A program made the translations under genes and the position numbers. The notes beneath the pieces were generated by a model. It was not told the origin of the DNA. It ran no database searches and was given only the letters and a program-made list of their open reading frames with translations. From Candidatus Saccharimonadales bacterium (GTDB taxonomy: Bacteria > Patescibacteriota > Saccharimonadia > Saccharimonadales > UBA4665), in contig DASZVP010000002.1 of assembly GCA_035546935.1 (NCBI GenBank), positions 38,564 through 62,563 on the forward strand: 24,000 bases of DNA. The letters run 5' to 3'. This document shows positions 5,124-20,993 of this stretch, one piece after another; position 1 is the stretch's first letter, and each line of letters opens with the position of its first letter.

Positions 5124-5216
5124 TGGCGGAGAGAGAGGGATTTGAACCCTCGCGGGGGATTGCTCCCCCCTATCGATTTAGCAAACCGACCCCTTCAGCC
5201 ACTTGGGTACCTCTCC
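5124..5216 (-). tRNA. tRNA-Ser (anticodon GCU), class II, CCA encoded
   Basis: In the reverse complement, acceptor GGAGAGG pairs with TCTCTCC. The anticodon stem is TCGGT/ATCGA with loop TTGCTAA (anticodon GCT). There is a long variable arm (GGGGGG-AGCAA-TCCCCC) and a T arm GAGGG-TTCAAAT-CCCTC. G plus CCA gives 93 nt. Confidence 0.92.
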
Positions 5217-5259
5217 GTTTAGACTGACACGTCAAAGTATTGTAACGCGTAATCTGGTC

Positions 5260-5349
5260 TGGCGGAAGGGGAGAGATTCGAACTCTCGGTACCGTTTCCG
5301 GCACGCCAGTTTTCAAGACTGGTTCCTTAAACCACTCGGACACCCTTCC
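5260..5349 (-). tRNA. tRNA-Ser (anticodon UGA), class II, CCA encoded
   Basis: In the reverse complement, acceptor GGAAGGG pairs with CCCTTCC. The anticodon stem is CCAGT/ACTGG with loop CTTGAAA (anticodon TGA). The variable arm is GCCGG-AAA-CGGTA.. and the T arm is GAGAG-TTCGAAT-CTCTC. G plus CCA gives 90 nt. Confidence 0.93.
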
Positions 5350-6184: not shown

Positions 6185-6670
6185 ATGGCGCGACGCAGCC
6201 AAAATGACGATTTATTACTAGAAGAAGATGAGCTGACCGCTGCCTTCTTGGGCGATGACGACCTTGGCGCAGCCGTCGAGGCTGCCGCAGCGCCAAGCGC
6301 GGCTGAACCGGCCGCTGAAGATGAATGGGATGACGACGAAGCCGTACCCGGCCAACTGGCTGTAGATGTCTACGAAACTCGCGATAAGCTAATCGTTAAA
6401 GCTCGCACCGCCGGCGTTAACAAGGGCGATCTGGACGTCAGCATTTCTGACAACCAGCTGACGATTCGCGGCACTTTGAGCTCGGGCAGTGAAGAAGGCG
6501 TCGAAAACTACTTCTTGCAAGAGTGCTACTGGGGCGAATTCAGCCGCACTATCGCTTTGCCCGTACCGGTCAAAGAAGAAGAGATTGAGGCTGTTCTTAA
6601 AGACGGCGTGCTAACCGTTAGCTTTGGCAAGGTTCAGCAAGATACTGTTAAGAAGATCCAGGTTCTTTAA
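6185..6670 (+). CDS. Hsp20/alpha-crystallin-family small heat-shock protein with an acidic N-terminal extension
   Basis: This is a 161-aa ORF. The alpha-crystallin domain shows in 'LAVDVYETRDKLIVKARTAGVNKGDLDVSISDNQLTIRGT...GEFSRTIALPVPVKEEEIEAVLKDGVLTVSFGK'. A strong SD (GGAGGgtaacaactATG) precedes the start. Confidence 0.9.
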   Translation: MARRSQNDDLLLEEDELTAAFLGDDDLGAAVEAAAAPSAAEPAAEDEWDDDEAVPGQLAVDVYETRDKLIVKARTAGVNKGDLDVSISDNQLTIRGTLSSGSEEGVENYFLQECYWGEFSRTIALPVPVKEEEIEAVLKDGVLTVSFGKVQQDTVKKIQVL

Positions 6671-6694: not shown

Positions 6695-6722
6695 AAAACC
6701 CCCGGTTCGCCCGGGGGGTTTT
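6695..6722. terminator. Bidirectional rho-independent terminator between hsp20 (+) and the last pilin gene (-)
   Basis: The sequence is AAAA-CCCCCGG-TTCG-CCCGGGGGG-TTTT. A GC-rich stem is flanked by an A-run on one side and a T-run on the other, so it can terminate in both directions. Confidence 0.75.
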
Positions 6723-6739: not shown

Positions 6740-7174
6740 TTATTGCAGGTTGCCGACGCCCGACTGCGTGGTGTTGATCACGTAGTGGACAATAATCTGC
6801 GCCAGCGCGACGACGACCAGGCCGACGATAGCGTAAATTAAGGTGTTCTTGGCGCCCGTGACACCGTCACCACCACCAGAGGTAATGTATTTGAAACCGC
6901 CATAAATAATCATGATGACGGCCACGATACCGACTACCACTGAGAAAATGTTGACTACTTTAGAAGCCACATTGCTCAGATCGGTGGTGCCGCCCTTACC
7001 GGCGTTGCCACACCCAGTGCCGTTACCCTCGCCAGTAGCGTTGTTAACACCCTGACATAGACCACTAACAATACCGCCTGATGCGGCGCTAGCGCTGGCC
7101 GGAATCAAAGCAGGGGCAAACAAGCCAAGACTGGCAACTGCCACGATGATGTAAGTTTTTAATTTTCGGATCAT
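6740..7174 (-). CDS. T4SS pilin-like protein (TrbC/VirB2-like), paralog 1 of 6, last in the array with its own promoter
   Basis: This is a 144-aa protein. It has a signal peptide (…PASASA), two Cys in a Gly-rich segment (LCQG…GTGCG) and a TM helix. Then come the loop 'GGFKYITSGGGDGVTGAKNTLIYAIVGL' and a second TM helix. This matches the architecture of VirB2/TrbC and the CPR 'T4SS_pilin' family. Confidence 0.75.
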   Translation of the reverse strand: MIRKLKTYIIVAVASLGLFAPALIPASASAASGGIVSGLCQGVNNATGEGNGTGCGNAGKGGTTDLSNVASKVVNIFSVVVGIVAVIMIIYGGFKYITSGGGDGVTGAKNTLIYAIVGLVVVALAQIIVHYVINTTQSGVGNLQ

Positions 7175-7200
7175 AGTTACCTTTCTTTAATCTTAACCTT

Positions 7201-7230
7201 TTTATACCACAATACTTAAAGCTATTTCAA
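7201..7230 (-). promoter_or_regulatory. Extended -10 promoter TTGAAA-18-(TGg)TATAAA dedicated to pilin paralog 1
   Basis: On the minus strand, TTGAAA is the revcomp of 7225-7230 and TGGTATAAA the revcomp of 7201-7209. A 26-nt leader containing an AAAGAAAGG-type SD precedes the ATG at 7174. Confidence 0.5.
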
Positions 7231-7245
7231 CTCTGTCGCCACAGC

Positions 7246-7647
7246 CTAGCCGGTGCCGGCCGCACTGCTGGTGCTATTAATGACAAAGTGAACAAGGAAT
7301 TGGGCCGCCACGGTAATAGCAATACCGATGAGCGCATAAATTAGGGTTGTTTTGGCGGTGGCTGCCTTATTGGAATCACCAGCTGCCGTAATGTATTTCA
7401 GGCCGGCGACAATGACCATTATTACAGAGATAATACCAGTGATTAGGCTCAAGATGTTAACCACTGTGCCGGCGACTGTGCCCACACTTTTACCGCCGGA
7501 GCCACAATCTGTGGAGCTATCAATTTGGCTGAGGCCTTGGCAAGCGTCTTGCTGCAGAGCGCTAGCTGCGTAAACTACCGAGGTTGAACCTACGCCAGCA
7601 AAGGCTACGCTGAGTGCAATTGCGAGTGATAAGAATCTGCGTTTCAT
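7246..7647 (-). CDS. T4SS pilin-like protein (TrbC/VirB2-like), paralog 2
   Basis: This is a 133-aa protein with a signal peptide (…VVYAAS) and a Cys pair (DACQG…TDCG). It continues with a TM helix, 'AGLKYITAAGDSNKAATAKTTLIYALIGI' and a second TM helix. The SD GGAGAGGAAAA precedes the ATG. Confidence 0.75.
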   Translation of the reverse strand: MKRRFLSLAIALSVAFAGVGSTSVVYAASALQQDACQGLSQIDSSTDCGSGGKSVGTVAGTVVNILSLITGIISVIMVIVAGLKYITAAGDSNKAATAKTTLIYALIGIAITVAAQFLVHFVINSTSSAAGTG

Positions 7648-7657
7648 TTTTCCTCTC

Positions 7658-8053
7658 CTACGTTAGCCTATCCAATACCACAACAACAATAGTTTGGGCC
7701 AAAATGGCTATTGCCACGCCAATCAATGAATAGGTGAGCGCGTTACGCGCTTCGGCCACCTTGCTCGAGTCACCGCCGTCAAGCGCCATCCGCATACCGC
7801 TGACCACTACACCGATAATGGCTGCAATACCGATTACCCAGGATAAAACTTCAATGGCTATTTTAATGGTGTGGATCACAGGATTATTGCTGCCGTTGTC
7901 ACCGCCCTGCGAATCGACATCTTGGCAGACAGCCGGGTTGCCACCGGCGCTATCTTTACCGCAGTGTTGGAAAAGATCTACGGCAGCAGCTTGGCCAACC
8001 GTCGCAGTGGCCAAAACTAAAGGTGCCAGCAACATTAAGATGATACGTTTCAT
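7658..8053 (-). CDS. T4SS pilin-like protein (TrbC/VirB2-like), paralog 3
   Basis: This is a 131-aa protein with a signal peptide (…GQAAA) and a Cys pair (HCGK…AVCQD). It continues with a TM helix, 'SGMRMALDGGDSSKVAEARNALTYSLIGV' and a second TM helix. Its start overlaps the stop of paralog 4 by 4 nt. Confidence 0.7.
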   Translation of the reverse strand: MKRIILMLLAPLVLATATVGQAAAVDLFQHCGKDSAGGNPAVCQDVDSQGGDNGSNNPVIHTIKIAIEVLSWVIGIAAIIGVVVSGMRMALDGGDSSKVAEARNALTYSLIGVAIAILAQTIVVVVLDRLT

Positions 8054-8382
8054 AGGCGGCTCAATACTAATGACACTATGGCTTCGGCGCTAATCGCCAC
8101 CGCTAAACCAACCAATGCATAAATGATAGTCTGGCGGGCCTTGCTGATTTCTTCGGGGTTGCCTTGAGCTGTAATAAACTTCAGGCCACTAATGACAATA
8201 ATTAAAACGGCAATCGCACCCATAATGCCAAACACTATCTGTAAAACCTCGTGCACTTGATTGGAGCTCACGCCCACCGTTGGCAGACCGGTATTACAAC
8301 TGGTTTGCGTTTTGGGGTCACACAAGGCTTGAGCAGTAGCCAGGAGATGCATGACGTAGTGGGCGGCAGAGTTCATAATCAT
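8050..8382 (-). CDS. T4SS pilin-like protein (TrbC/VirB2-like), paralog 4 (short N-terminus)
   Basis: This is a 110-aa protein with a short, atypical leader (MIMNSAAHYVMHLLATAQA) and a Cys pair (LCDPKTQTSC). It continues with a TM helix, 'SGLKFITAQGNPEEISKARQTIIYALVGL' and a second TM helix. Confidence 0.7.
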   Translation of the reverse strand: MIMNSAAHYVMHLLATAQALCDPKTQTSCNTGLPTVGVSSNQVHEVLQIVFGIMGAIAVLIIVISGLKFITAQGNPEEISKARQTIIYALVGLAVAISAEAIVSLVLSRL

Positions 8383-8385
8383 ATT

Positions 8386-8760
8386 TTACTTGATACTCTT
8401 TGCTACAAAGGACACAATCGCGGCTGCCATAACGGCTATGGTTAGGCCAACCAGGGCGTTGACAATCATGTTTTTGGCCTTGGCGGTTGCCTCGGTCTCG
8501 GCCTGGCTAGTTATATAGGTAAAGCCACCGTAAATCACAAAGATAACAGCGATAACAGCGGCCAAGCGCAGCAGTATCTCGATAACAGCCGCAACGATGA
8601 GCCAGATGTCGCTCAAACTGCCAAGTTGCGGTGTACAGAGGCCAGAGTTAGGATCTGTGGTTTGTTTAAGGTATTCATACCAGGTTGGAAATCCCAAAAA
8701 GCCGGAGTGAGCACCATTGGTACAAGCGGCGGCAAAATTAGAGAAGGCGGTAGCGATCAT
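8386..8760 (-). CDS. T4SS pilin-like protein (TrbC/VirB2-like), paralog 5 (divergent N-terminal region)
   Basis: This is a 124-aa protein with no canonical signal peptide. Its Cys pair is widely spaced (AAACTNG…SGLCTPQ). It continues with a TM helix, 'GGFTYITSQAETEATAKAKNMIVNALVGL' and a second TM helix. Its start overlaps the stop of paralog 6 by 4 nt. Confidence 0.7.
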   Translation of the reverse strand: MIATAFSNFAAACTNGAHSGFLGFPTWYEYLKQTTDPNSGLCTPQLGSLSDIWLIVAAVIEILLRLAAVIAVIFVIYGGFTYITSQAETEATAKAKNMIVNALVGLTIAVMAAAIVSFVAKSIK

Positions 8761-9152
8761 TGATGTAAGAATCCTGCTGGCAAAATGTAATTAAGAAAGG
8801 CGTAGCCGAAAATGTAAAACAGCATGGCCATAACTGTACTGCGGATGCGCTTCACGGCATTGGCCGTGCCGTTCGGATCCCCACCGGCTGCCGAATACTG
8901 AATGCCGGCCACAACCAGCGAGCCCACAATCACCAAGCCAACGCCATCGGAGAGAATGCGAATTATGGCAAAGACCAGGTCGGTGATCGGGTTGCCGATA
9001 CCTTTACAGCCAATATTAATGGCCGTGGTGATGCCGCTGTGCCCGCCACCACCGCCACCGCAAGTATCAGCAAAAGCTACGGCTGTGGGTGTCGCGGCAA
9101 AAAGCAGGGCTAGAGCAAAAGCTGAAATTAGTTTGTGTTTTATGCGCTGCAT
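8757..9152 (-). CDS. T4SS pilin-like protein (TrbC/VirB2-like), paralog 6 (first gene of the operon, most divergent)
   Basis: This is a 131-aa protein with a signal peptide (…AVAFA). Its Cys pair flanks a Gly run (DTCGGGGGGHSG…IGCKG). It continues with a TM helix, 'AGIQYSAAGGDPNGTANAVKRIRS' and a second TM helix. Confidence 0.65.
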   Translation of the reverse strand: MQRIKHKLISAFALALLFAATPTAVAFADTCGGGGGGHSGITTAINIGCKGIGNPITDLVFAIIRILSDGVGLVIVGSLVVAGIQYSAAGGDPNGTANAVKRIRSTVMAMLFYIFGYAFLNYILPAGFLHQ

Positions 9153-9160
9153 TTTCTGTT

Positions 9161-9189
9161 ACTATAGGTGCTTTTTGGCCTTTGGTCAA
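9161..9189 (-). promoter_or_regulatory. Promoter TTGACC-17-TATAGT for the pilin operon; ATG lies 8 nt after the -10 (candidate leaderless)
   Basis: On the minus strand, TTGACC is the revcomp of 9184-9189, followed by a 17-nt spacer and TATAGT (revcomp of 9161-9166). Then come aacagaaa and the ATG at 9152-9150. There is no SD. Confidence 0.5.
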
Positions 9190-9292: not shown

Positions 9293-11581
9293 GTGGGCAA
9301 ACAAATTTATATGCGATTAAAATTAAAACCAACCGGCAAACTCCGAAAAGTGTCGCTGATTGTCTTTCTTTCTATTGTTCTTTCACTAGAGTGGGGCAGC
9401 ACACTTCAGGGCCAGAGTCCGATTAGTGCCGATGCCCTGGCTGCCGGGCACCAAAGCCATTCATTACTGAGCAAGTTTACGCTGTTTGGCGACACCGTCG
9501 ACCCGAACTGCGAAAGCAGCGGTATCACCCTTAACTGGGTGTTTTGTGGCATTTATGATGGCATATCTGACAGCGCGACTTTCATACTGACACACTTAAT
9601 TGAGCCGGAGCTTAAGACCGCACCACTTTGTTTAAACGGCACAGGGCCTAACTGTAGCCCTCACGACCCCACCTATGCGATTTGGTCCAACTTCCGTGTT
9701 TATGGCGACATTTTTCTGGTAATTGCCTTGTTGGTGATTGTTTTTGGCGAGGCAATCGGTGGCGGGGTAATCGACTCATACACTGTTAAGCGAACCTTGC
9801 CGCGTTTGCTGGCAGCTGCCATTCTTATTAACTTGTCTATTTATATTGTCGCCTTCGCATTGGACGTCGGCAATATTCTTGGCGGAGGCATAGGCAGCTT
9901 GATTACCGCGCCGCTACAGGGCGCTGGCGCCTTCACTATCCACCCCAATGGAACAGTCGCCACCGCAGAAGTTGGAGCTCTTGGCATCATTGGTCTGGCA
10001 TTTGCCGCAAAAGGCGCAGCCGGTGCTCTAACCAGTAAAGCCGGCCTGAAGGCCTTGTTTACTTTGAAGGGCGGCTCAGTCCTTATCGATGGTATTCTCA
10101 TACCGGCTTTCCTGTTATTTGTGGCTATCCTAGCAACCATTGCTGTGCGAAAAGCCATCATTTTGGCCCTGGTTTTTGTCTCGCCTGTAGCCTTCGCGCT
10201 GTACGCGCTGCCCAACACCGAGCAGTACTTTAAGCGCTGGTGGAAGCTACTCCAAGAAATGGTGCTTGTCTACCCGATTATTGTGCTGATGTTTGCGGTC
10301 AGTGATGTTTTGTCGGTAACCGTCGAGGCACCCACAGCTACCACTGGCGCAGCCAGTGCAGGAGTAAACCTGCTACTATCCTTTGTTTTCTTGATCATCC
10401 CACTGTTTATGATTCCTTTCAGCTTTAAGTTAGCTGGTGGTGTCTTGGGGCGAATTCACGACTTCGTCGACAATGGCCGCCAAAAAGCACACAGCTGGAA
10501 CGAAGGCCGCCGCGAACGCGGCAAAGCCAAGTGGAAAGCAGCCGACGTCCAGACCCGCTCCGACCGCTATGCCGCAATGCAAAAGTACGCCTCCACTAAA
10601 GGCAAGCCTTTCAGAGGACTTGTAGGCGGTATGGCAGGTTTTTACGGCGGCTACAATATTGAGGCTGAAGCCTCCAAAATTCGCGCCGATACCGCCAAAG
10701 AGGTAAACGACCAGATTGCTACTGGTAAAGATGACGAAATTCGCGGCCTATTGATTGATAAAAAGACCGCTGAACGCAAAGTGGAGAACGGCAAAGTACA
10801 GTACCGCAGTCTTGGCGGTCAATGGGTTGATGAAGCGGCCGTCGATGCTGGTCAAGCTCGTTGGGGTCACGATACTTTTGCTATGCAAGCTGCTCTGTCT
10901 TACGAAATGCGTAAAGCCGACTCTGAAGAAGATGTTGCGCGTATTCGTAGCAACTTTGGCAATACCGCAAAAGCCCTTGGTGTAAGCAGGACAGCAGCTC
11001 AAGGGATGTGGATTGGTGCCGCTTTTGAAAACCAGAACCAGCACTTAGAATTCAAATACCGTGACTGGGAAACTGGCCAAATGAGTGCCGATAATGCTCG
11101 GAAGTTTGCTTCAGAAGCATACGAGAAGAAGGGCAGCTACCAAATGGCCCAGATGCATGCCAGCACTATCGAAAGCTTAAGCACGGCTTATGATGTAGCT
11201 GAACGAGCGGGCGACACTGAAACCATGGACAAAATTGCAGCTGTCGCCGAAACCTTTATGACACGTTACGGTGGTGCCGCAGGTGGTGCTGGGGCACCTG
11301 ACGATCCTGCTCAGCAAGCGGTTGCAGCACAACAAGCCCAACAGGCAGCTGCTTGGGCCGCCACCATGGGCGCCACACCTGTTGGCACCGGAGCTCCTGG
11401 TGCGGCTGGTGGACCAGTTCCACAAGCTGAGCCTGTGGTGCAGACAAACACACCTGGCGCAGGCCACGTGGCAGAGAAAGTACGCCAGCTAGCAGTCAAA
11501 ACCGGTGTTTACCGACCGCTTAGTCGACCTACTGATATTGGCCCCGAAGATTCGGGACCAACTATTGATCGCCAAAACTAA
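9293..11581 (+). CDS. VirB6/TrbL-like polytopic T4SS membrane protein with a large C-terminal hydrophilic domain
   Basis: This is a 762-aa protein; the start could be GTG 9293 or ATG 9311. It has an N-terminal signal/TM and a 4-Cys ectodomain, then about 7-8 hydrophobic helices across residues 130-400. A roughly 360-aa hydrophilic domain ends in a Gln/Ala/Pro-rich low-complexity tail. The architecture resembles the VirB6-like proteins of Gram-positive T4SS (TcpH/PrgH/ConG type). The call rests on architecture and context. Confidence 0.6.
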   Translation: MGKQIYMRLKLKPTGKLRKVSLIVFLSIVLSLEWGSTLQGQSPISADALAAGHQSHSLLSKFTLFGDTVDPNCESSGITLNWVFCGIYDGISDSATFILTHLIEPELKTAPLCLNGTGPNCSPHDPTYAIWSNFRVYGDIFLVIALLVIVFGEAIGGGVIDSYTVKRTLPRLLAAAILINLSIYIVAFALDVGNILGGGIGSLITAPLQGAGAFTIHPNGTVATAEVGALGIIGLAFAAKGAAGALTSKAGLKALFTLKGGSVLIDGILIPAFLLFVAILATIAVRKAIILALVFVSPVAFALYALPNTEQYFKRWWKLLQEMVLVYPIIVLMFAVSDVLSVTVEAPTATTGAASAGVNLLLSFVFLIIPLFMIPFSFKLAGGVLGRIHDFVDNGRQKAHSWNEGRRERGKAKWKAADVQTRSDRYAAMQKYASTKGKPFRGLVGGMAGFYGGYNIEAEASKIRADTAKEVNDQIATGKDDEIRGLLIDKKTAERKVENGKVQYRSLGGQWVDEAAVDAGQARWGHDTFAMQAALSYEMRKADSEEDVARIRSNFGNTAKALGVSRTAAQGMWIGAAFENQNQHLEFKYRDWETGQMSADNARKFASEAYEKKGSYQMAQMHASTIESLSTAYDVAERAGDTETMDKIAAVAETFMTRYGGAAGGAGAPDDPAQQAVAAQQAQQAAAWAATMGATPVGTGAPGAAGGPVPQAEPVVQTNTPGAGHVAEKVRQLAVKTGVYRPLSRPTDIGPEDSGPTIDRQN

Positions 11582-12242: not shown

Positions 12243-13229
12243 GTGAATTTGCTATACTTATGCTTAATGGCAACTTATAAAGTGATTCAGGATATTGAGG
12301 CCGAGGACCACATCCTTGGGCCTCTGACGCTGCGCCAGTTTATATATGGGCTTATCTGTGCGTTTTGTTTATACCTTTGCTTTATCGGTTTCAGCAAACG
12401 GGTCTATCCGCTGCTGATTATTTTCTTCCCGCCGGCTCTGTTAACCGGCTTTTTCGCTTTTCCGTTTCGGCAGGATCAGCCGACGGAGATTTGGGCACTG
12501 GCTAAAGTGCGCTTTATGTTCAAGCCGCGACGACGGGTTTGGAGCCAAAGCGGCATTAAAGAGCTGGTAACTATTACGGTGCCTAAAAAGTTCGAGCCGC
12601 AGCTTACCAAAAACATGGACCAAGAACAGGTGCAAAGCCGCCTGAAAGCTTTGGCGTCCACCATCGACAGTCGTGGTTGGGCAATTAAGAATGTTGACTC
12701 TAATATGTACAGCCAGCCTTCGGACAGATTGGTAACACCTGATACCATACACCGTGAGGTGCCAGAATTGGATATTCGGGCATCGGACGACATTTTCGAT
12801 TCACAGAGCAGTCCGCTCAGCGCCCACTTTGAGCAAATGATTGGCGCAACTACAGAGAATCGGCGGCAGCAACTGACTGCCACTTTGACCGGGCAACCAG
12901 CGCCCAGCAATTTACCGGCCCCAAGTATGGATAAAGATCGCAGCTGGTTTATGAACCCTGTGGCTCCAAGTGTGGCTCCGGCGCCTACCGCTAACAGCCA
13001 TATGCGTACCTTGCAGCCCTTGAGCGACGGTCAGCAGACAGCATTACCTGCGACGACTATTCCGCAGCCGCCATCATCCGCCTCAGTCGCTAGTCCGGCC
13101 ACGCCCGATCCTGCTATACTTAATCTGGCAGGCAACAATGACCTAAATGTAGCCACACTGGCTCGCGAGGCACAAAAAGCTAAGCAGGGTGATGGCGCGG
13201 ACGGTGAAGTTGTCATTTCGCTCCATTAG
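12243..13229 (+). CDS. PrgI-family (VirB3-like) T4SS membrane protein with a long Pro/Ser/Ala-rich C-terminal extension
   Basis: The N-terminus 'YKVIQDIEAEDHILGPLTLRQFIYGLICAFCLYLCF…LLIIFFPPALLTGFFAFPF' matches the PrgI-family opening (a conserved …G.LT.RQ… motif plus two TM helices). The start is ambiguous among GTG 12243, TTG 12249 (6 nt after GGAGG) and ATG 12267. About 200 further residues are largely low-complexity. Confidence 0.65.
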   Translation: MNLLYLCLMATYKVIQDIEAEDHILGPLTLRQFIYGLICAFCLYLCFIGFSKRVYPLLIIFFPPALLTGFFAFPFRQDQPTEIWALAKVRFMFKPRRRVWSQSGIKELVTITVPKKFEPQLTKNMDQEQVQSRLKALASTIDSRGWAIKNVDSNMYSQPSDRLVTPDTIHREVPELDIRASDDIFDSQSSPLSAHFEQMIGATTENRRQQLTATLTGQPAPSNLPAPSMDKDRSWFMNPVAPSVAPAPTANSHMRTLQPLSDGQQTALPATTIPQPPSSASVASPATPDPAILNLAGNNDLNVATLAREAQKAKQGDGADGEVVISLH

Positions 13230-13277: not shown

Positions 13278-14126
13278 ATGAATCCTCAAGCACCAAGACC
13301 GGTCGATCCCTTGTCTCAAGGCGCCGCACCGGCTCCTCAGCCCGTGGCTCCCGGAGTTCCGGGCGCTGCTCCTGTACCGGTAGCTCCAGGTTTTCAGTCC
13401 AACCCCAACAGCACACAAAACACTCTGCAAATCGCGGAAGTCCGTGATGGAGTTGTTATTATGAACGACGGCTCGTACCGCTCAGTAATTATGGTCAAAA
13501 GCATAAACTTTGATCTGATGAGTGGTGCTGAGCAGGAAGCTGTGGAATATAGCTATCAGGGTTTCCTAAACTCCTTGTATTTCCCGGTGCAGATATTCGT
13601 GCGCTCTTCGAAAGTCGATCTGAAGCCTTATATTGAAAAGCTGGAGAAGATCCGCACCGAACATGAAAACATGCTGCTGGCCGTACTGATGGACGACTAC
13701 ATCGGCTACATCGATTACCTCAGCCAACGCACCAACATTATGGACAAAAAGTTTTATGTGGTGGTGCCGTTTTTCCCTGTTGTTGACGTCCAAAAAGCTC
13801 TGACTCAAAGCAAGAACTTCTTCAGCGGTTTGGGCGAGATTTTCAGCAAAAAAGAGCAGCATGTGACAATTAACGAAGCCGATTTAGAGGCTGCCAAAAC
13901 TGAACTGCGCAACCGCGTGCAAGCCGTGCTGGCCGGTCTGCAACAGTGCGGCATTCAAGGTTTGCCGCTGGATACACAGGAACTAATTGAGCTTTACTAC
14001 GACAGCTATAACCCAGATACCGCCACCCGCCAGTCGCTGAAGAGCTTCCCAGACTTGTCGGCTGATGTCATTAGCAAAGGTGAGGGTTCGGCGCCGCAAG
14101 CTCACTTGCAAAGGGAGATGCAGTAA
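13278..14126 (+). CDS. Protein resembling a VirB4 N-terminal domain (Gram-positive ConE/PrgJ type), encoded separately
   Basis: This is a 282-aa protein. A Pro-rich N-terminus is followed by 'LQIAEVRDGVVIMNDGSYRSVIMVKSINFDLMSGAEQEAVEYSYQGFLNSLYFPVQIFVRSSKVDLKPYI'. That stretch resembles the extreme N-terminal region of Gram-positive VirB4 ATPases. There is no Walker motif. The stop TAA overlaps the next ATG (TAATG at 14124-14128). Confidence 0.55.
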   Translation: MNPQAPRPVDPLSQGAAPAPQPVAPGVPGAAPVPVAPGFQSNPNSTQNTLQIAEVRDGVVIMNDGSYRSVIMVKSINFDLMSGAEQEAVEYSYQGFLNSLYFPVQIFVRSSKVDLKPYIEKLEKIRTEHENMLLAVLMDDYIGYIDYLSQRTNIMDKKFYVVVPFFPVVDVQKALTQSKNFFSGLGEIFSKKEQHVTINEADLEAAKTELRNRVQAVLAGLQQCGIQGLPLDTQELIELYYDSYNPDTATRQSLKSFPDLSADVISKGEGSAPQAHLQREMQ

Positions 14127-16075
14127 TGGCTTTTGGCGGCAAAAAAAACCAAACTCCGACAGACCCCGTGGCAATCGCTCAGATGCAGCAAGCCCGCGAG
14201 CAGCAAGAGGTGCAGCTGGCCTTTCAAAAAGGTATTACGGCGCTGCGCGACTTTATTTCGCCGAGCTCCATCGAACTTTTTAATACGCACTTCCAGCTGG
14301 GCACGCGTTACGCTCGCACTTATTATGTCTACGGCTACCCGCGCCAGGTTTACACCGGTTGGTTGAGCGGCTTGGTTAATGTCGATGAAGTTATCGACAT
14401 CAGCATGTTTATTTATCCGGTAGAGAGCCAGGTGGTGCTGGAAAACTTGCGTAAAAAGGTGACACAGCTGGAAGCTGGCATTCAGATCGATAATGAAAAG
14501 GGCCGTGTGCGCGACCCGGGTAAGCAGGCCGCGATTTTGGACGCCGAAGAAATGCGTGACAAGCTGCAGGTAGGCGAAGAGCGTTTCTTCCGCTTTGGCC
14601 TGTACTTTACGCTGTACGCTGGCTCGATGGACGAGCTGGAATTTGTTTCACACAAGGTGGAGTCAATGCTCGGCCAGCAGCTGGTTTACTCCAAGGCGGC
14701 CACCTCGCAGCAAGAGCAGGGCCTGAACAGTACGATTCCGCAGCTTACCGACCAGTTGCAGATTCGCCGCAACATGAACACCGGCGCCTTGTCGACTAGT
14801 TTCCCCTTTACCAGCGCTGACCTGACCCAGGACAATGGCATTTTGTATGGCATCAACATGCACAACTCCGGCTTGGTGATTTTTGACCGTTTCTCTCTGG
14901 AAAACAGCAACTCAGTGGTCTTCGCTAAGTCTGGTGCCGGTAAGTCATTTGCAGTCAAACTGGAAGCGCTACGCAGTATGATGTTCGGCACCGAAATCTT
15001 TATTATCGACCCAGAAAATGAGTATCAGCGAATGTGCGACGCCGTTGGTGGTGCTTATGTACGCCTCAGTCTTAACTCCACCACACGCATTAACCCCTTT
15101 GATTTGCCCAAGGTGGTCGATGCTGAAGAAGCCGACAACGCCCTGCGCTCCAACCTGATCACCTTGCACGGTCTGCTGCGGCTGATGATGGGTGGCGCTC
15201 AAGCTCAAATGTTGGGCGGTAATGCCGCCATTATGCCTGCTTTGTCGCCATCTGAGGAGGCCGATCTGGATGCGGCCCTGATTGAAACCTACGCCAAGGC
15301 CGGCATCACCAACGACCCACTGACCCATACAGCCATTCCGCCGACAATTGCTGATTTGTATGATACTTTGCTGCACATGGGCGGCAGTGGACCGCAGCTG
15401 GCCCAGCGCCTGCGCAAATACACCAGCGGAACTTTCGCCGGCATCTTCAGCCAGCAAAGCAACATCGACATTAACAACCCGTTGGTTGTCTTCAATGTCC
15501 GTGACCTGGAAGACGAGCTGCGCCCGGTCGCTATGTATATTGTGCTAAATTACATCTGGAATAAGACAAAAACCGACCAACGACGGCGCATCCTGTTAAT
15601 CGATGAGGCCTGGCAGCTAATGAAATACGAAGATTCAGCCAACTTTATGTTCTCGCTGGCCAAGCGTGCTCGCAAGTACAATTTGGGCATTACCACTATT
15701 TCCCAGGACGTCGAAGATTTTATGGGCTCCCGCATGGGCCGGGCAATTGTGGCGAACGCCTCGATGCAATTGCTTCTCAAACAATCACCATCCGCCGTTG
15801 ACATCTTGGCTGATGTGTTCAAATTGACAAGTGAAGAAAAGAAACGTTTGAGTCAGTTCCCGGTTGGCCAGGGTCTATTCTTTGCCGGTCAAAACCACGT
15901 GCATGTTCAGGTTGTGGCCAGCCCGACCGAAGAAGGATTGGTTAGCAGCTCGCCGGCTCAAGCCGCGCCAAATGGTCCGCCAGGCATAACTGGCGAGATT
16001 AATCAGAGCCAGGGCACCATCGATCTTGGCAACCGTTTGAGCCCGGGCAGCACCGGACTTGTCGGCGGTATGTAA
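14126..16075 (+). CDS. virB4: VirB4-family T4SS ATPase (lacks the extreme N-terminal segment)
   Basis: This is a 649-aa protein. It carries 'RYARTYYVYGYPRQVYTGWLSGL', the typical VirB4/TraE '…yP..v..gwl' motif. Walker A 'AKSGAGKSF' sits near residue 270, Walker B is 'RILLIDEAWQL', and 'ITTISQDVEDF' follows. The SD GGAG lies 8 nt upstream of the ATG. Confidence 0.9.
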   Translation: MAFGGKKNQTPTDPVAIAQMQQAREQQEVQLAFQKGITALRDFISPSSIELFNTHFQLGTRYARTYYVYGYPRQVYTGWLSGLVNVDEVIDISMFIYPVESQVVLENLRKKVTQLEAGIQIDNEKGRVRDPGKQAAILDAEEMRDKLQVGEERFFRFGLYFTLYAGSMDELEFVSHKVESMLGQQLVYSKAATSQQEQGLNSTIPQLTDQLQIRRNMNTGALSTSFPFTSADLTQDNGILYGINMHNSGLVIFDRFSLENSNSVVFAKSGAGKSFAVKLEALRSMMFGTEIFIIDPENEYQRMCDAVGGAYVRLSLNSTTRINPFDLPKVVDAEEADNALRSNLITLHGLLRLMMGGAQAQMLGGNAAIMPALSPSEEADLDAALIETYAKAGITNDPLTHTAIPPTIADLYDTLLHMGGSGPQLAQRLRKYTSGTFAGIFSQQSNIDINNPLVVFNVRDLEDELRPVAMYIVLNYIWNKTKTDQRRRILLIDEAWQLMKYEDSANFMFSLAKRARKYNLGITTISQDVEDFMGSRMGRAIVANASMQLLLKQSPSAVDILADVFKLTSEEKKRLSQFPVGQGLFFAGQNHVHVQVVASPTEEGLVSSSPAQAAPNGPPGITGEINQSQGTIDLGNRLSPGSTGLVGGM

Positions 16076-16143: not shown

Positions 16144-18885
16144 ATGGCCGTTTACGACCCGGAGCCAGAGGATAGCAACAAACCTGGTTTTTATAACCCG
16201 CACGACGGTTCGATTCAAAATGGTTTGGGCTCTAATGGCAGTTATCGTGAAAAGTACTTAAGCCGGGTTCGTGATCAAGAAGATAACCCCGACGACTCCA
16301 GCCAGGGCGATGATTCAAGCACTTCAGATGAGTCGGACAGAGTTAACCAAATCTCTGGCGACTCAAGTGGTCATGCTAATAGGGGCAGAAAGAGCACAAG
16401 CGACGACCGAAACTCTAATAATGACGATGGCGGCAGTTTCAAGCGAGGTGGCAAAGCTGGCGCCGGTAAAACCGGTACAGACGGAGTTAAAGGCGCTGAT
16501 GGTGGCGGCGCAGCCGGAACAGCCGGCCTGTTCAGGGCTGCCGATCCCATGGGGGGCCTGGGCAAAGCTGTGCAATTTTTGGGCAAGAACAAGGGTAAGG
16601 CTGGCGCAGCCGGCGGCGGCTTAACAGCTTTGATTTTGTTGCTGGTCATGGGTTTTGGTGCGGTGGCATCTTTTGAACTGGAAACAATAGCTAAAGATAT
16701 TTCTAAAGACGTTAGTAAAATTGAGCAGGCCGCAGAAAGAAACTCTTCTAAAAGACTTATCAAAAAGATTAAAAAGCGTCTCGAGAAGAAGGCTACTGCC
16801 AACGAGGCCGAGAAGGCCGCCATGGCCGCCGAGGATAGCGCCGGCAGATTAGCCAGCGAAATGGACAAATTCAATTTTACTGACTCAGAGGTGAAGGCAA
16901 GGTTAGCTGCACGTGGTATCCACGTTAAAACCAATGCTGCGGGTGAGTTTACTGGTTTTGAAGACGCCGCCGGTAACGATATCACCAAACAAATAGGCGA
17001 GGATAACGCTTTTACCGATGCTTTTAATGAGGCCTTGCCTGAAGCCGATGTCATGCAGCTGAAACCGTTCCAGGCCATAGAAACCGAACATGCCGGCAGT
17101 ACTTTTGATGGCATACCTGAAGATACGCCACCAGAAGAAACTCAAAAGACCATTGAAGATAAAATAATGAATGGCGCCAGCGAATCAGACATAATCAGTG
17201 CCGAGGCGGGTGATGAAAGTGACGACGGTCAGGTCGATGAAAACAATCCTGATGAAGCCAAACAGGCCAGCGATTTTGATGAAATAAAAAAACAAGGTGG
17301 CGAGCTTGGCGACGCATTGGAAGCCACTCAAGAAAGCTTGGCAAAGGGTGAGTCGGGCGCCAGTGCGCTGAGTAAGGGCGTTAAATCATTCAAGCTTGGT
17401 AACCCGATATTGGCCAGCCAGCTGGCAACAATGGCCTGCGGCTTTAAAAAGGATGTTGACGAGGTCTCCAAGGCCCGTATTCCGTTGATTATGCATCTGT
17501 TAACACGGCATTTTACATTAGTGATGAGTTTGGCTGGACAATTGGTCACCGGCCACCTCAAAGGCGCTACTGTGGCTAAGGTTATGTCCGTGTGGAATGG
17601 CGACCAGAGCGTGAAGCCAACCAAGGACGACCCCAACCCTGAGGCGGCAATGCCGTTCAGTAAGTCAGCTGCCTGGCAACGCATTACCGGTGGCACCATT
17701 GACGACAATCCCAAGAGTCCCGGCTTCACGCCCGATATTGCCAAGTCGGCTTTGCCGTCCAAAAATACTGGCACTAAGATTGTTGAGGAAATTGATAAGG
17801 TGTTCAGTAAGATTAAGGGTGCAAACCTTTCCTGTAAGGTTCTGACCAGCAAGTTTGGTTTTATTGTTCAGACTGTGGTCGGTATTGGTCAGCTGTTCGC
17901 GGATCTTGGCTCGCTGGGTGCTTCTCAGGTAGCTATTACCGCTGGAATTGTAGCTACTCAGCAGCTGATAGAACACGTGGTGCTGCCTGACATTATCAAG
18001 TATTTCACACCGGTCGGTATTTATGGTGGTGAAGATTCAGTACAACAACTTAACAACACACATGCTGGCGGCGTGATTGCCGAAAGCGACTTTGCGCGCA
18101 GCAACGGCGGCGAACCACTGACAACCAGCAAGGCAAACGAGATAACCAGGTCCCAAAACGCACATCTCGCTATGGTAGAAAGCCGGAAACCCTGGACAGA
18201 ACGCACCTTTAGCCTTGATGATCCCGGCTCTCTGGTTAGTCGCATGGCCCTGTACTTACCCGTTAACACTCACCAAATGGTTGGTGATGTAGCCAGTTTC
18301 TTTGCTACACTGCCGCAAACTTTAGGACATGTTTTCAGCAATCTAATTACGCCGCATATTGGCGCATTAACAGATAACGACCAGAGTGCGGGTGCGGCTT
18401 ACGATATTACAGAATATGGCTTTACTGAAGCCGATGCCAATAAATATGATGTCTTGGAAAATGAAAAATATCTTAACACAACGGTTACTTACAACGGCAA
18501 CAGCGCCACTCGTTTAGAAATGGCTGGCGATCCCAACAACTTTTTAGATGGTGTAATTGATTCCAGCGATACCGATTTGCTGCACTGCTATTTGCAGAGC
18601 TACACACAAGAAGATTCCAACGGCCAGATGTTGGTAAATGATGACGGCAGCGACAAAATATGCGGTTCGTTGGGCAATTACGATCTGGGCCGTCATGCAC
18701 CGCAACCAATGACTGACACCAATGTGGCAATATCTTATTGCGAATACCTGGAAGGCTCTTCATCGCCGTCTGGTGATTGCCTGGATGCTGTAATCCCACA
18801 ACTGCACGACGACATCGGTCACTTCCGACAATACATCTTGGACTCACACGTTATGCACGCTTACACGCTGTTGGTGGGCTCATGA
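16144..18885 (+). CDS. Large (913 aa) orphan membrane-anchored protein of the T4SS operon
   Basis: The first ~150 residues are disordered and rich in Asp/Ser/Gly. One clear TM helix (LTALILLLVMGFGAVASF) follows, then a Lys/Glu/Ala-rich helical region and an acidic linker. The remainder is a globular region of about 550 aa with an internal hydrophobic stretch (FGFIVQTVVGIGQLFADLGSLGASQVAITAGIVA) and a Cys-containing C-terminus. I recognise no family. Confidence 0.7.
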   Translation: MAVYDPEPEDSNKPGFYNPHDGSIQNGLGSNGSYREKYLSRVRDQEDNPDDSSQGDDSSTSDESDRVNQISGDSSGHANRGRKSTSDDRNSNNDDGGSFKRGGKAGAGKTGTDGVKGADGGGAAGTAGLFRAADPMGGLGKAVQFLGKNKGKAGAAGGGLTALILLLVMGFGAVASFELETIAKDISKDVSKIEQAAERNSSKRLIKKIKKRLEKKATANEAEKAAMAAEDSAGRLASEMDKFNFTDSEVKARLAARGIHVKTNAAGEFTGFEDAAGNDITKQIGEDNAFTDAFNEALPEADVMQLKPFQAIETEHAGSTFDGIPEDTPPEETQKTIEDKIMNGASESDIISAEAGDESDDGQVDENNPDEAKQASDFDEIKKQGGELGDALEATQESLAKGESGASALSKGVKSFKLGNPILASQLATMACGFKKDVDEVSKARIPLIMHLLTRHFTLVMSLAGQLVTGHLKGATVAKVMSVWNGDQSVKPTKDDPNPEAAMPFSKSAAWQRITGGTIDDNPKSPGFTPDIAKSALPSKNTGTKIVEEIDKVFSKIKGANLSCKVLTSKFGFIVQTVVGIGQLFADLGSLGASQVAITAGIVATQQLIEHVVLPDIIKYFTPVGIYGGEDSVQQLNNTHAGGVIAESDFARSNGGEPLTTSKANEITRSQNAHLAMVESRKPWTERTFSLDDPGSLVSRMALYLPVNTHQMVGDVASFFATLPQTLGHVFSNLITPHIGALTDNDQSAGAAYDITEYGFTEADANKYDVLENEKYLNTTVTYNGNSATRLEMAGDPNNFLDGVIDSSDTDLLHCYLQSYTQEDSNGQMLVNDDGSDKICGSLGNYDLGRHAPQPMTDTNVAISYCEYLEGSSSPSGDCLDAVIPQLHDDIGHFRQYILDSHVMHAYTLLVGS

Positions 18886-20993
18886 TGAGGCGCATAAAGT
18901 ACCTGATTGTGGCCCTAGCTGTAAGCTTGTCTATTGGTAGTAGCGCTTCAGGGCTAGGCCTAACAGATCAGGAATGGAACCGCATAAACGGTGACAGCAT
19001 TTACTATAATGGCTGCTCCAATAGTAGCAGTGCGGCAGTTAACGGCAGCGGCCCCACCAGTGGCGGACCAACCATTGTCATCGATCCGGGGCACAGCGGC
19101 GACGATATTCACGATAACGATCCTCAGACCGGCTTATACGACCATGACTATCCCAATGAACCAGAGATGACTGAGGTGTTTGATGTGGCACAAAAGGTCC
19201 AAGACAAATTACAGGCTGATGGTTACAAAGTTATTATGACCAAGCAGAGCGTTAACGATGATGTGTCGTTCCGTGAACGCGCTGACGTCGCCAACCAGGC
19301 TAATGCCGACCTGGCATTAAGCATTCATGACAGCCACGATACGTCGTGGCAAAACATGTACGGCAGTGGCGATGGCGGCCAGGTTTATGTCCAGGCAGTG
19401 GGCGATTACCGCCAAAACAAACCGGGTATGGGGGTTGGCAATAAAAAAGTTAAGTTTATGGATAATGATGTGGCTAAAAAAAGCCAAGAATACGGCCAGA
19501 TATTTGCCGACCAACGCACCAAAGACGAAGACCATAAGGTGTCTGTGGCGCCAGAGAACTTTAATGGCCGTGATGGGTTGCCGAGCGGGAATATTCCGAT
19601 GGTTCAGCTGTTTGCAGCTGTGCCGTGGGTTTACAACGAGGTGGGCGCACCTCACGGAAAGCTGTCGGCAGCTGAGCTAGACAAATACGCCAAGGGCATC
19701 ATTGATGGTGTTGAGAAATCGGTACCAGTTACCGCCAGCGCCATTACAACTAATACCCCAGACAGCGGCGCAGTAGAGTGTTGCAATAATTCCAGCTCGG
19801 CCAACACCGACATCACCGTGCCGGGCGACGCTGACGGTGCCAAGGGTGCTTGGAGCAGCGGCTTGACCGGACCTTACATTATTGAACAGTTTGCAATTAA
19901 TGTTCTAGAAGATTTGGCGCAAAAGAAGGGCGTACCCACCACCGACACAGTTACCAAACAGCATGTTTTGGCATTAGTTGCCTGGGCCTATATTGAAGGC
20001 GGCGATATTGCCAACGACAGCTTGTTTAATCTCTATAACTCCGGGCAGCGAGATTCGGGCTTTACGGCCGGCGCCCACACCACTGACGGCCTGGGCTCAT
20101 ACGTCTCATTTGATGCGGGCGTCGAAGAAATCACCCGCAATATTGATGACGGCAACCATAATGGCATGGTCAAAGTCTTGTTGGACCCCAACTCCAGTGC
20201 CGAAGACTTTGGACACGCTGAAGCCACCTCTGGCACCCAGCAGGGAACCTTGATCTGGGCCGCCGCATCCAAAGACCCCAGCTACTTCCGTCGAACATGG
20301 GCCCCTGTTTTGGCTCAAACCGAAAGCGCCTACAAAGACTATGCTTCTTTGCAGATTGGCACCACCGCACACGAACTATACGCCCACAAACATCTTCGCA
20401 GCCAGCTATCCGACATTGGCAGTGACGGCTTTGTGGTGAACACCGGCGATATTGCCTGTGGCGTCAGTGCCGAGGGCGCGGCTGGCATTGTCCAAGATGC
20501 CTTGAAGTTGGCTTGGCCCGAACCATTCGGCAGCCAGGCTCCGGGCAGCGAACCGAATCGTACCAGCGCACTGACTAATACCGCTGCGTATCAATCAGCT
20601 CTGGACAGCCTGTGGCCACATGGTGGGGCACCTTATAACGGAGCCGACTGCGGCACTTTTGTGAGTGCAGTTGTTAGAGACAGCGGAGCCGACCCCAACT
20701 ATCCGCCATCTGGCACGGGCGCGCAGTGGGCTTATGTTACCTCTCACCCCAAGAAGTGGTATGTTCAACAGGACGTGACCAGCATGTCTGATTTGCAGCC
20801 AGGTGATGTCCTGATTATCGGTGGCGCCGGTGGTGCTGGGGCGGCCGGCCACACCTGGATTTATGTTGGCAAACAACAAGGCGGTTATTGGTCAGCCAGC
20901 GCTTCTATGGGCGGCCGCAGCGGTAACCTGACCAATGATGTGTTGACCGATGCTGCAGCGAGTGGCAACTATTTATTAGCGAGGCTAAAATAA
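18882..20993 (+). CDS. Secreted multidomain cell-wall hydrolase: N-acetylmuramoyl-L-alanine amidase (Amidase_3-like), unknown middle domain, and NlpC/P60 (CHAP-like) peptidase
   Basis: The track ORF is 18777..20993. The likely start is ATG 18882, which overlaps the upstream stop (ATGA) and gives the signal peptide MMRRIKYLIVALAVSLSIGSSASG. The amidase domain shows in 'IVIDPGHSGDD…NEPEMTEVFDVAQKV…DLALSIHDS', with a His/Glu/His Zn-ligand pattern. The C-terminal domain has 'GADCGTFVSAVV' (catalytic Cys) and 'GHTWIYVG' (His). Confidence 0.8.
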   Translation: MMRRIKYLIVALAVSLSIGSSASGLGLTDQEWNRINGDSIYYNGCSNSSSAAVNGSGPTSGGPTIVIDPGHSGDDIHDNDPQTGLYDHDYPNEPEMTEVFDVAQKVQDKLQADGYKVIMTKQSVNDDVSFRERADVANQANADLALSIHDSHDTSWQNMYGSGDGGQVYVQAVGDYRQNKPGMGVGNKKVKFMDNDVAKKSQEYGQIFADQRTKDEDHKVSVAPENFNGRDGLPSGNIPMVQLFAAVPWVYNEVGAPHGKLSAAELDKYAKGIIDGVEKSVPVTASAITTNTPDSGAVECCNNSSSANTDITVPGDADGAKGAWSSGLTGPYIIEQFAINVLEDLAQKKGVPTTDTVTKQHVLALVAWAYIEGGDIANDSLFNLYNSGQRDSGFTAGAHTTDGLGSYVSFDAGVEEITRNIDDGNHNGMVKVLLDPNSSAEDFGHAEATSGTQQGTLIWAAASKDPSYFRRTWAPVLAQTESAYKDYASLQIGTTAHELYAHKHLRSQLSDIGSDGFVVNTGDIACGVSAEGAAGIVQDALKLAWPEPFGSQAPGSEPNRTSALTNTAAYQSALDSLWPHGGAPYNGADCGTFVSAVVRDSGADPNYPPSGTGAQWAYVTSHPKKWYVQQDVTSMSDLQPGDVLIIGGAGGAGAAGHTWIYVGKQQGGYWSASASMGGRSGNLTNDVLTDAAASGNYLLARLK

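Follow-up and report, generated by a model that had tools for sequence, protein, structure and literature searches.

The present analysis concerns a tandem array of six small genes, P1 to P6, on the minus strand of a 24,000-nucleotide (nt) stretch of DNA, referred to as the window, which derives from an environmental metagenome-assembled genome (MAG) of Candidatus Saccharimonadales (Patescibacteria, also known as candidate phyla radiation, CPR; GenBank assembly GCA_035546935.1, contig DASZVP010000002.1, positions 38,564 to 62,563). The array very probably represents the pilin operon of a chromosomal type IV secretion system (T4SS) that is related to the T4SS of monoderm conjugative elements and whose subunits would be inserted, assembled and employed in the way proposed below. 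The assignment to a chromosomal T4SS follows from the linkage of the array to genes for PrgI-like, TrsD-like and VirB4 proteins and for a cell-wall hydrolase. Among 80 related loci that were fetched, pilin open reading frames (ORFs) were found in 49, and 30 of these 49 carry a six-gene array. With all six proteins of the window falling into one Pfam family and the same array recurring at this frequency, the arrangement is far beyond chance. Such a system bears on the question of how Saccharibacteria and other CPR bacteria, all of them obligate epibionts, live off their hosts. A T4SS with a six-pilin array has proved essential in the single species tested, and for a monoderm T4SS, VirB2-like pilins have been reported from the CPR arrays only. 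What is added here are five subunit lineages in a fixed order, one subunit with a promoter of its own, paired cysteines and one variable ectodomain, and these points argue for a heteromeric structure over antigenic variation.

The six ORFs named in the initial annotation were all reproduced by the ORF listing. Transcription proceeds from P6 (8757-9152, 131 aa), the first gene of the operon, through P5 (8386-8760, 124 aa), P4 (8050-8382, 110 aa, the shortest of the six), P3 (7658-8053, 131 aa) and P2 (7246-7647, 133 aa) to the last gene, P1 (6740-7174, 144 aa). The close packing of the genes was confirmed from the sequence. P6/P5 and P4/P3 overlap by 4 nt (ATGA at 8757-8760 and 8050-8053), gaps of 3 nt (8383-8385) and 10 nt (7648-7657) lie at two other junctions, and 71 nt separate P2 from P1. 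The general plan that had been described for the proteins, two cysteines followed by two membrane helices with a loop in between, was recovered as well. Each protein contains exactly two cysteines, 7-28 residues apart, and by hydropathy all pairs are located N-terminal of two long hydrophobic segments, which form the C-terminal helices. At the N-terminus of P1, P2, P3 and P6, a further hydrophobic stretch follows upon basic residues and resembles a signal peptide; its basic n-region, hydrophobic part and A-x-A-like site were read from the sequence and the hydropathy profile. P4 and P5 have no such segment, and there is no room for a signal peptide since their ORFs start at the first start codon after a stop, so that the annotated lack of signal peptides in these two paralogs holds. 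In P6, the signal-peptide-like N-terminus is followed by a Cys-Gly6...Cys segment, containing the glycine run noted before, the hairpin and a C-terminal ..LPAGF motif. Only one element of the common plan turned out to be less general than claimed: the conserved loop motif ascribed to all six proteins fits P1, P2, P4 and P5 well, P3 and P6 only loosely. Pairwise, the paralogs share 23-40% protein identity, with P2 being the closest relative of P1 (40%), and a repeat search of the window detected no DNA repeat of more than 20 nt linking any of them. Due to these values, the DNA of the paralogs is too diverged for a recent duplication, as had been proposed, and recent duplication or cassette conversion within the window was ruled out by the lack of a shared repeat. 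Scans for tRNA genes and Rfam families gave nothing within the array.

The relationship of the proteins to VirB2-like pilins rests first of all on profile searches, for which the curated cut-offs are 26.6 bits (PF18895, T4SS_pilin, gathering), 27.9 bits (PF04956, TrbC/VirB2, gathering) and 40 bits (NF045849, equivalog). PF18895 matches all six proteins with E values from 1e-13 to 7e-4, and P1 (51.6 bits, E 9.7e-14), P4 (47.5 bits, E 1.9e-12), P2 (40.8 bits, E 2.3e-10) and P3 (32.2 bits, E 1.1e-7) score above its cut-off. The same model matches approximately half of the P6 orthologs. PF04956 covers the same two-helix region as PF18895, best in P1 (24.1 bits, E 4.2e-5) and with 15.6-21.7 bits, below the cut-off, in P2 to P5, while P6 gave no match to this model. 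More significant values were obtained with an alignment of the P1 subfamily comprising P1, 51 database homologs and the five paralogs (n=57). PF18895 matches all 57 sequences and TrbC matches 47 of them at E<=1e-3, the best at 2.6e-8. In a comparison of hidden Markov models (HMMs) with hhalign, the P6 subfamily was tied to the P1 subfamily with 96.2% probability (E 2.3e-9) when the paralogs had been removed from the template; a previous value of 99.3% was discounted as that template alignment had included P6 itself. NCBIfam model NF045849 also matches all six proteins, with 17.9-36.6 bits (E 3e-9 to 2e-3), which is below its cut-off. The topology is compatible with a pilin hairpin. AlphaFold (AF2) models show a helical hairpin for both P1 (H66-98/H104-141) and P6 (H55-88/H93-129), with a predicted local distance difference test score (pLDDT) of 85-90 in the P1 core and of 79 on average in P6. 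According to the alignment, basic K/R positions are conserved in the short loop between the helices, whose net charge is 0 to +2 overall and -1 in P6. Judged by these similarities, the six proteins belong to the T4SS_pilin/TrbC-VirB2 superfamily, in agreement with the VirB2-like identity originally suggested. In the databases of NCBI, a protein identical to P1 is indeed named 'pilin [Candidatus Saccharimonadales bacterium]', and P6 is listed as 'hypothetical protein VHB51_00825'.

To compare the subunits between genomes, 31 complete six-gene arrays were used, and for each C-terminal 80-residue core the nearest neighbour in another genome was determined. The nearest neighbour occupied the same array position in 31/31 cases for positions 1, 4, 5 and 6 each and in 30/31 cases for position 3. 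Position 2 was divided, its nearest neighbours being at position 2 in 16 and at position 1 in 15 of the 31 arrays. Labels assigned by full-length BLAST to the window proteins had been muddled at positions 1-3 and were replaced by these core neighbours. In other genomes, the first two pilins of one array have up to 78% core identity, and in five of the loci (L074, L036, L061, L043 and L018) positions 1 and 2 reach up to 78% within the genome and approximately 50-60% to their orthologs elsewhere. Arrays of seven to nine genes were also encountered; their extra copies are P1-like. The P1/P2 pair thus suggests recurrent duplication or gene conversion confined to positions 1 and 2. Otherwise, by sequence comparison, array position predicts orthology, and the genes represent five old orthologous lineages in the fixed order P6, P5, P4, P3 and the P2/P1 pair, rather than as six interchangeable copies. 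The assumption that the subunits are functionally distinct is supported by this positional orthology.

The lineages differ in conservation and in a number of features. Median core identity to the orthologs is 62% for P1 and 35-50% for the other five. Pilin orthologs are altogether approximately 36-46% identical, compared to 82-88% for VirB4 of the same loci. By region, identity among orthologs amounts to approximately 25% in the N-terminal segment, 4-9% in the C-terminal tail and 40-69% in the helices and the loop, with P1 having the highest values. Exactly two cysteines upstream of helix 1 are found in 29 (position 1), 25 (position 2), 21 (position 3) and 25 (position 5) of the 31 orthologs. 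At position 4, the cysteine number is zero in 18, two in eleven and one in two of them. Hence, cysteines are retained or lost in pairs, which is the pattern a disulfide would produce. None of the 31 P4 orthologs has a third hydrophobic segment and a signal peptide is never present; P5 orthologs usually have no signal peptide either. P5 carries the motif C..FLGFPTWYEYL..C upstream of the hairpin, for which its orthologs give the consensus C..F[FL]G[FL]PxWYxYL..C. The P5 lineage furthermore has a conserved short hydrophobic start that ends in F-A-A directly before the first cysteine. It could be that this start is a very short cleaved leader or that the aromatic motif serves for docking. P6 orthologs are characterized by a signal peptide, by a cysteine-rich ectodomain whose length varies between approximately 20 and over 200 residues, and by ..LIPGG as a conserved tail.

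The organisation of the control regions differs between the two ends of the operon. Upstream of P1, a promoter-like site was read from the sequence at 7201-7230 on the minus strand (TTGAAA, a spacer of 18 nt and the extended -10 element TGgTATAAA), which the promoter scan missed because it requires a T at the last position of the -10 element. A ribosome-binding site (RBS), AAGAAAGG, lies at 7180-7187 on the same strand, 5 nt upstream of the ATG of P1. Both elements are conserved. In the 31 arrays, the last gene is preceded by a median of 74 nt of intergenic sequence as opposed to -4 to 5 nt at the other junctions, and in most of them this gap contains a recurring block composed of TTGnnn, TG[GCA]TATAA[AG] and the RBS sequence. 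The extended -10 element TG-n-TATAA is present in 22 of 30 related loci, most of the remaining ones having an untagged GTATAA at this place, and GAAAGG at the RBS position is kept in nearly all of the 31 intergenic regions. The claim that the last gene has its own extended -10 promoter, and with it the two-tier promoter organisation, is therefore backed by conservation between genomes. The primary promoter-like site precedes P6 at 9161-9189 on the minus strand and was detected by the scan with 10/12 matches (TTGACC-17-TATAGT). Its -10 element TATAGT ends only 8 nt before the ATG of P6, and no Shine-Dalgarno sequence follows it. Of 29 orthologous loci, 15 have a TAnnnT hexamer whose end is 5-10 nt away from the start of the first gene. 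On visual inspection, TATAGT or TATAAT at a distance of 7-9 nt and no Shine-Dalgarno sequence were seen in about a dozen of the 15. Loci L008, L018, L024, L033, L055, L056, L072 and L079 are among those sharing this placement, along with others. Taken together, the sequences suggest that the first gene of the operon is located on a leaderless or near-leaderless mRNA. Downstream of P1, the scan detected an intrinsic-terminator-like hairpin at 6699-6717 with seven G-C pairs between an A run and a T run; in 26 of the 31 arrays, a terminator-like hairpin was found no more than 120 nt behind the last pilin gene, in line with the terminator annotated there. The hairpin at 6699-6717 would act as a bidirectional terminator, common to P1 and the converging hsp20 gene (6185-6670, plus strand).

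The neighbouring genes on the plus strand complete the system. Divergently to the pilin operon, a polytopic membrane protein of 762 aa is encoded at 9293-11581. It had no match in Pfam or NCBIfam and may be regarded as VirB6-like by its position only, which corresponds to that of SEML1_0013, a protein of Southlakia epibionticum matched to TrbL/VirB6 by structure (Wang et al. 2023, PMC10633639). It is followed by genes for a PrgI/VirB3-like protein (12243-13229; PF12666, E 3.8e-11), a TrsD-like protein (13278-14126; NF041427, E 3.4e-6, below the cut-off) and the VirB4 ATPase (14126-16075; TraG P-loop, E 1.2e-27, and AAA_10), orthologs of which with 82-88% identity exist in at least 80 Saccharimonadia genomes. 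A protein of 913 aa without a convincing family match is encoded after VirB4 and before the hydrolase (16144-18885). Its positional counterpart in S. epibionticum is SEML1_0007, an essential gene of 3342 nt. The cell-wall hydrolase (18777-20993) contains an Amidase_3 domain (PF01520, E 1.3e-16) and a weaker NlpC/P60 match (PF00877, E 1.5e-4, 22.1 bits versus a cut-off of 23), and might act in the way of the VirB1/PrgK-type hydrolases of other T4SS. Read from its first TTG, this ORF overlaps the 913-aa ORF by 109 nt (18777-18885); the true start is probably further downstream. recF and dnaN are situated at the right end of the window, and no relaxase or type IV coupling protein (T4CP) domains were detected among the window ORFs scanned. 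The linkage of the pilin array to VirB4 is kept in all complete related loci. With VirB4, PrgI, a TrsD-like protein and a hydrolase, a position near the origin and neither relaxase nor T4CP, the window has the composition of a Patescibacterial chromosomal T4SS related to the MPF-FATA class (MPF, mating-pair formation). Beyond the system, four tRNA genes (Arg-GCG, Ser-CGA, Ser-GCT and Ser-TGA) lie within 2542-2908 and 5124-5349. Since it coincides in part with two of these, a 206-aa ORF on the minus strand (2289-2909) is unlikely to be a true gene.

How these components might work together can be outlined as follows. The operon would be transcribed from the promoter abutting the P6 start codon, probably as a leaderless mRNA, and translational coupling would carry expression from P5 to P2. 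In the cytoplasmic membrane, the inserted subunits would expose the N-terminal segment on the outer face and keep the loop on the inner face. Insertion would be achieved in P1, P2, P3 and P6 by means of a Sec signal peptide cleaved at the A-x-A-like sites, in P4 and P5 by signal-peptide-independent translocation of their short N-terminal tails. In the exposed segment, the cysteine pair would form an extracytoplasmic disulfide. The VirB4 ATPase and a platform of the VirB3-like and VirB6-like proteins would then extract the subunits and polymerise them into a tube across the cell wall. P1 is the likely bulk (major) subunit since it has its own conserved promoter and a strong RBS on top of read-through as well as the most conserved core, while P6, P5 and P4 may be low-copy specialised subunits for tip, initiation or base.

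A more specific proposal can be made, which is tentative and, taken as a whole, rather doubtful. It states that all six proteins build one heteropolymeric tube of the VirB2 type in which each subunit has its set task, comparable to the way major and minor pilins share the work in type IV pili and type II secretion systems, and that this tube is the structure seen in Mycosynbacter amalyticus. Cryo-electron tomography of this species revealed a 'lance / tube-like conduit' that bridges to the host, measures approximately 8.6-9 nm in width and 60-70 nm in length and carries a barb at its tip. Conjugative pili of the F and T type have a diameter of approximately 8-9 nm, which the lance width of approximately 9 nm matches. 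In such a tube, P6 with its signal peptide and its cysteine-rich ectodomain of very variable length would be the distal tip. P5 and P4, which are devoid of signal peptides, would serve as initiators or adaptors and P3 as a minor component of the shaft or the base, while the shaft itself would be made of P2 and P1. If true, a T4SS pilus would be on record for a monoderm for the first time, and it would be the physical path by which CPR bacteria exploit their hosts.

Several observations weigh against the interpretation of the array as a pilin operon. With PF18895, P5 scored 26.3 bits, 0.3 below the cut-off, and P6 only 20.1 bits. None of the six proteins reached the curated cut-off of PF04956 so that, by this threshold, they appear as relatives of TrbC/VirB2 and not as members. 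A search of the PDB with the 57-sequence profile of the P1 subfamily (E<=10) gave two irrelevant membrane proteins and no conjugative pilin, and Foldseek with the P1 model against the PDB retrieved generic helical hairpins only (E>=2.5), without any solved pilin. Since a two-helix hairpin is too simple a fold, Foldseek cannot discriminate here, and because no solved pilin was recovered, the structural link to VirB2 rests on the Pfam profiles and the generic hairpin. A VirB2-type pilus has not yet been demonstrated in any Patescibacterium. The filaments isolated from M. amalyticus, a member of the Saccharimonadia, are Pam pili with an Ig fold, and those seen in a 2025 study on N. lyticus were attributed to type IV pili, not to a T4SS pilus. 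A 2026 preprint on a 'novel pilus in CPR' was considered as a match and dismissed as it deals with Ig-fold Pam pilins unrelated to P1-P6. The attempt to obtain a reference alignment by tblastn of Agrobacterium VirB2 against plasmids yielded sequences from Rhizobiales and Acetobacteraceae only, which was too narrow for this purpose.

The main rival explanation is that there is no extended pilus and that the six proteins are channel or wall-spanning parts of a monoderm T4SS, for instance a short stalk, a pore lining or assembly factors. T4SS of the Gram-positive type normally lack pili, a T4SS pilus has never been seen on Saccharibacteria, the filaments shed by M. amalyticus are Pam pili only, and the closest NCBIfam model stems from integrative and conjugative elements (ICEs) of wall-less Mycoplasma. 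On the other hand, the proteins are homologous to the pilus-forming TrbC/VirB2, the dedicated strong promoter of one subunit suggests that it is needed in bulk, and a tube of suitable dimensions does exist in M. amalyticus. The difference between a 'short tube' and a 'pilus' is, moreover, a matter of degree. All things considered, this explanation is rather unlikely. It is clearly less probable still that the paralogs are interchangeable variants which serve antigenic or host-range variation, as proposed for VirB2 of Bartonella and Anaplasma. This has been suggested for Patescibacteria in the survey by Quinonero-Coronel et al. (PMC12102498), and the low ortholog identity of the exposed N-terminal segment (25%) and of the C-tail (4-9%) indeed indicates hypervariability. 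Likewise, P1 and P2 duplicate or converge repeatedly and the arrays of seven to nine genes have gained P1-like copies. However, orthology between the 31 genomes is strictly one-to-one at positions 3, 4, 5 and 6, and there are lineage-specific features, namely the absence of signal peptides in P4 and P5, the WY motif of P5 and the ectodomain and ..LIPGG tail of P6. The genes are translationally coupled in one operon, and in S. epibionticum all six were individually scored as essential, which would not be expected of redundant variants. Finally, the chance is minute that the proteins are two-helix membrane proteins unrelated to secretion, such as holin-like proteins or transporter subunits, which merely adjoin the T4SS genes. 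Weak and non-specific matches to DctQ and cytochrome bd subunit II point in this direction, as does the failure of Foldseek to give anything but generic hairpins, but PF18895/TrbC was consistently the top match, VirB4 linkage is found in every complete related locus, and 1,135 published assemblies have a pilin gene near virB4, according to the same survey.

The closest known system is the array SEML1_0014-0019 of S. epibionticum ML1, which has been shown to be essential (Wang et al. 2023, Cell, PMC10633639; reviewed in PMC12857230). According to the supplement of Wang et al. (PMC10633639), it consists of six PF18895 genes of 399, 558, 312, 381, 384 and 417 nt, all of which were scored GD/ES/ES. 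Like the array of the window, it comprises six tandem genes between a divergent VirB6-like gene on one side and a converging Hsp20 gene on the other. The proteins follow each other in the same size order (approximately 132, 185, 103, 126, 127 and 138 aa in ML1), the gap before the last gene measures 83 nt in ML1 and 71 nt in the window, and the last gene is the only one of the ML1 array annotated as 'pilin'. The 4-nt overlap of ML1 is located at genes 2/3, one junction further along than the one at 8757-8760. The neighbours also agree, with PrgI, an 880-nt TrsD-like gene, VirB4, a very large unknown protein and a hydrolase. From synteny, gene sizes and domain positions, the operon of the window is the positional ortholog of SEML1_0014-0019. 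ML1 is a human oral isolate whereas the window stems from an environmental MAG, and essentiality is known for ML1 only.

On a broader scale, Quinonero-Coronel et al. (2025, Microb Genom, PMC12102498) catalogued 441 arrays, each composed of 2-11 VirB2-like genes. Saccharimonadia and Microgenomatia account for the majority, and Saccharimonadia have them most often. These PF18895/PF04956 genes are located near a virB4 of the monoderm type (MPF-FATA-related), have a mean within-array identity of 25% and a maximum of 54%, and lie near the replication origin without a nearby relaxase or coupling protein. The window fits each of these traits, including its paralog identity of 23-40% and the nearby recF and dnaN. 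Thus, the six-gene array, its copy number, divergence and importance are already published, and the significance belongs to Wang et al. (2023) and Quinonero-Coronel et al. (2025), not to the window. The survey regards the copies as variable paralogs, possibly for host adaptation. The positional orthology, the subfamily features and the conserved promoters were found here and were not met in its accessible part.

The TrbC/VirB2 proteins of diderm bacteria (VirB2 of Agrobacterium, TrbC of RP4 and TraA of F) and the pilins of the window have in common their small size, a leader or leader-like segment, two helices with a short basic loop and genes beside virB3, virB4 and virB6 homologs. What separates them is the monoderm host of the window, the presence of six paralogs in one operon instead of one, the cysteine pair in the exposed N-terminal segment and the absence of a signal peptide in two of the proteins. 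Pilins of the TrbC/VirB2 type polymerise together with phospholipid to give an extracellular pilus, and those of the P and T types are cyclised; there is no sign in the window of cyclisation, a VirB5 tip protein or an outer-membrane core. The Mbov_0395/MMCAP2_0565 family of Mycoplasma ICEs (NF045849), whose two-helix core of 80 residues is matched nearly over its full length by all six proteins, belongs to a monoderm T4SS like the system of the window. Its members are, however, single-copy proteins on mobile elements, to which the pilins of the window are relatives, not fellow members. Monoderm systems of the MPF-FATA type, usually described as devoid of VirB2-like proteins, may therefore not lack them completely, and the likeness bears on the question of whether the pilin was inherited or co-opted in Patescibacteria. 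With the VirB2 paralogs of Anaplasma and Bartonella, as cited in PMC12102498, the array shares tandem amplification and divergence in a host-dependent bacterium. While those copies are thought to be alternatives for antigenic variation, the copies in the window represent old and positionally fixed lineages.

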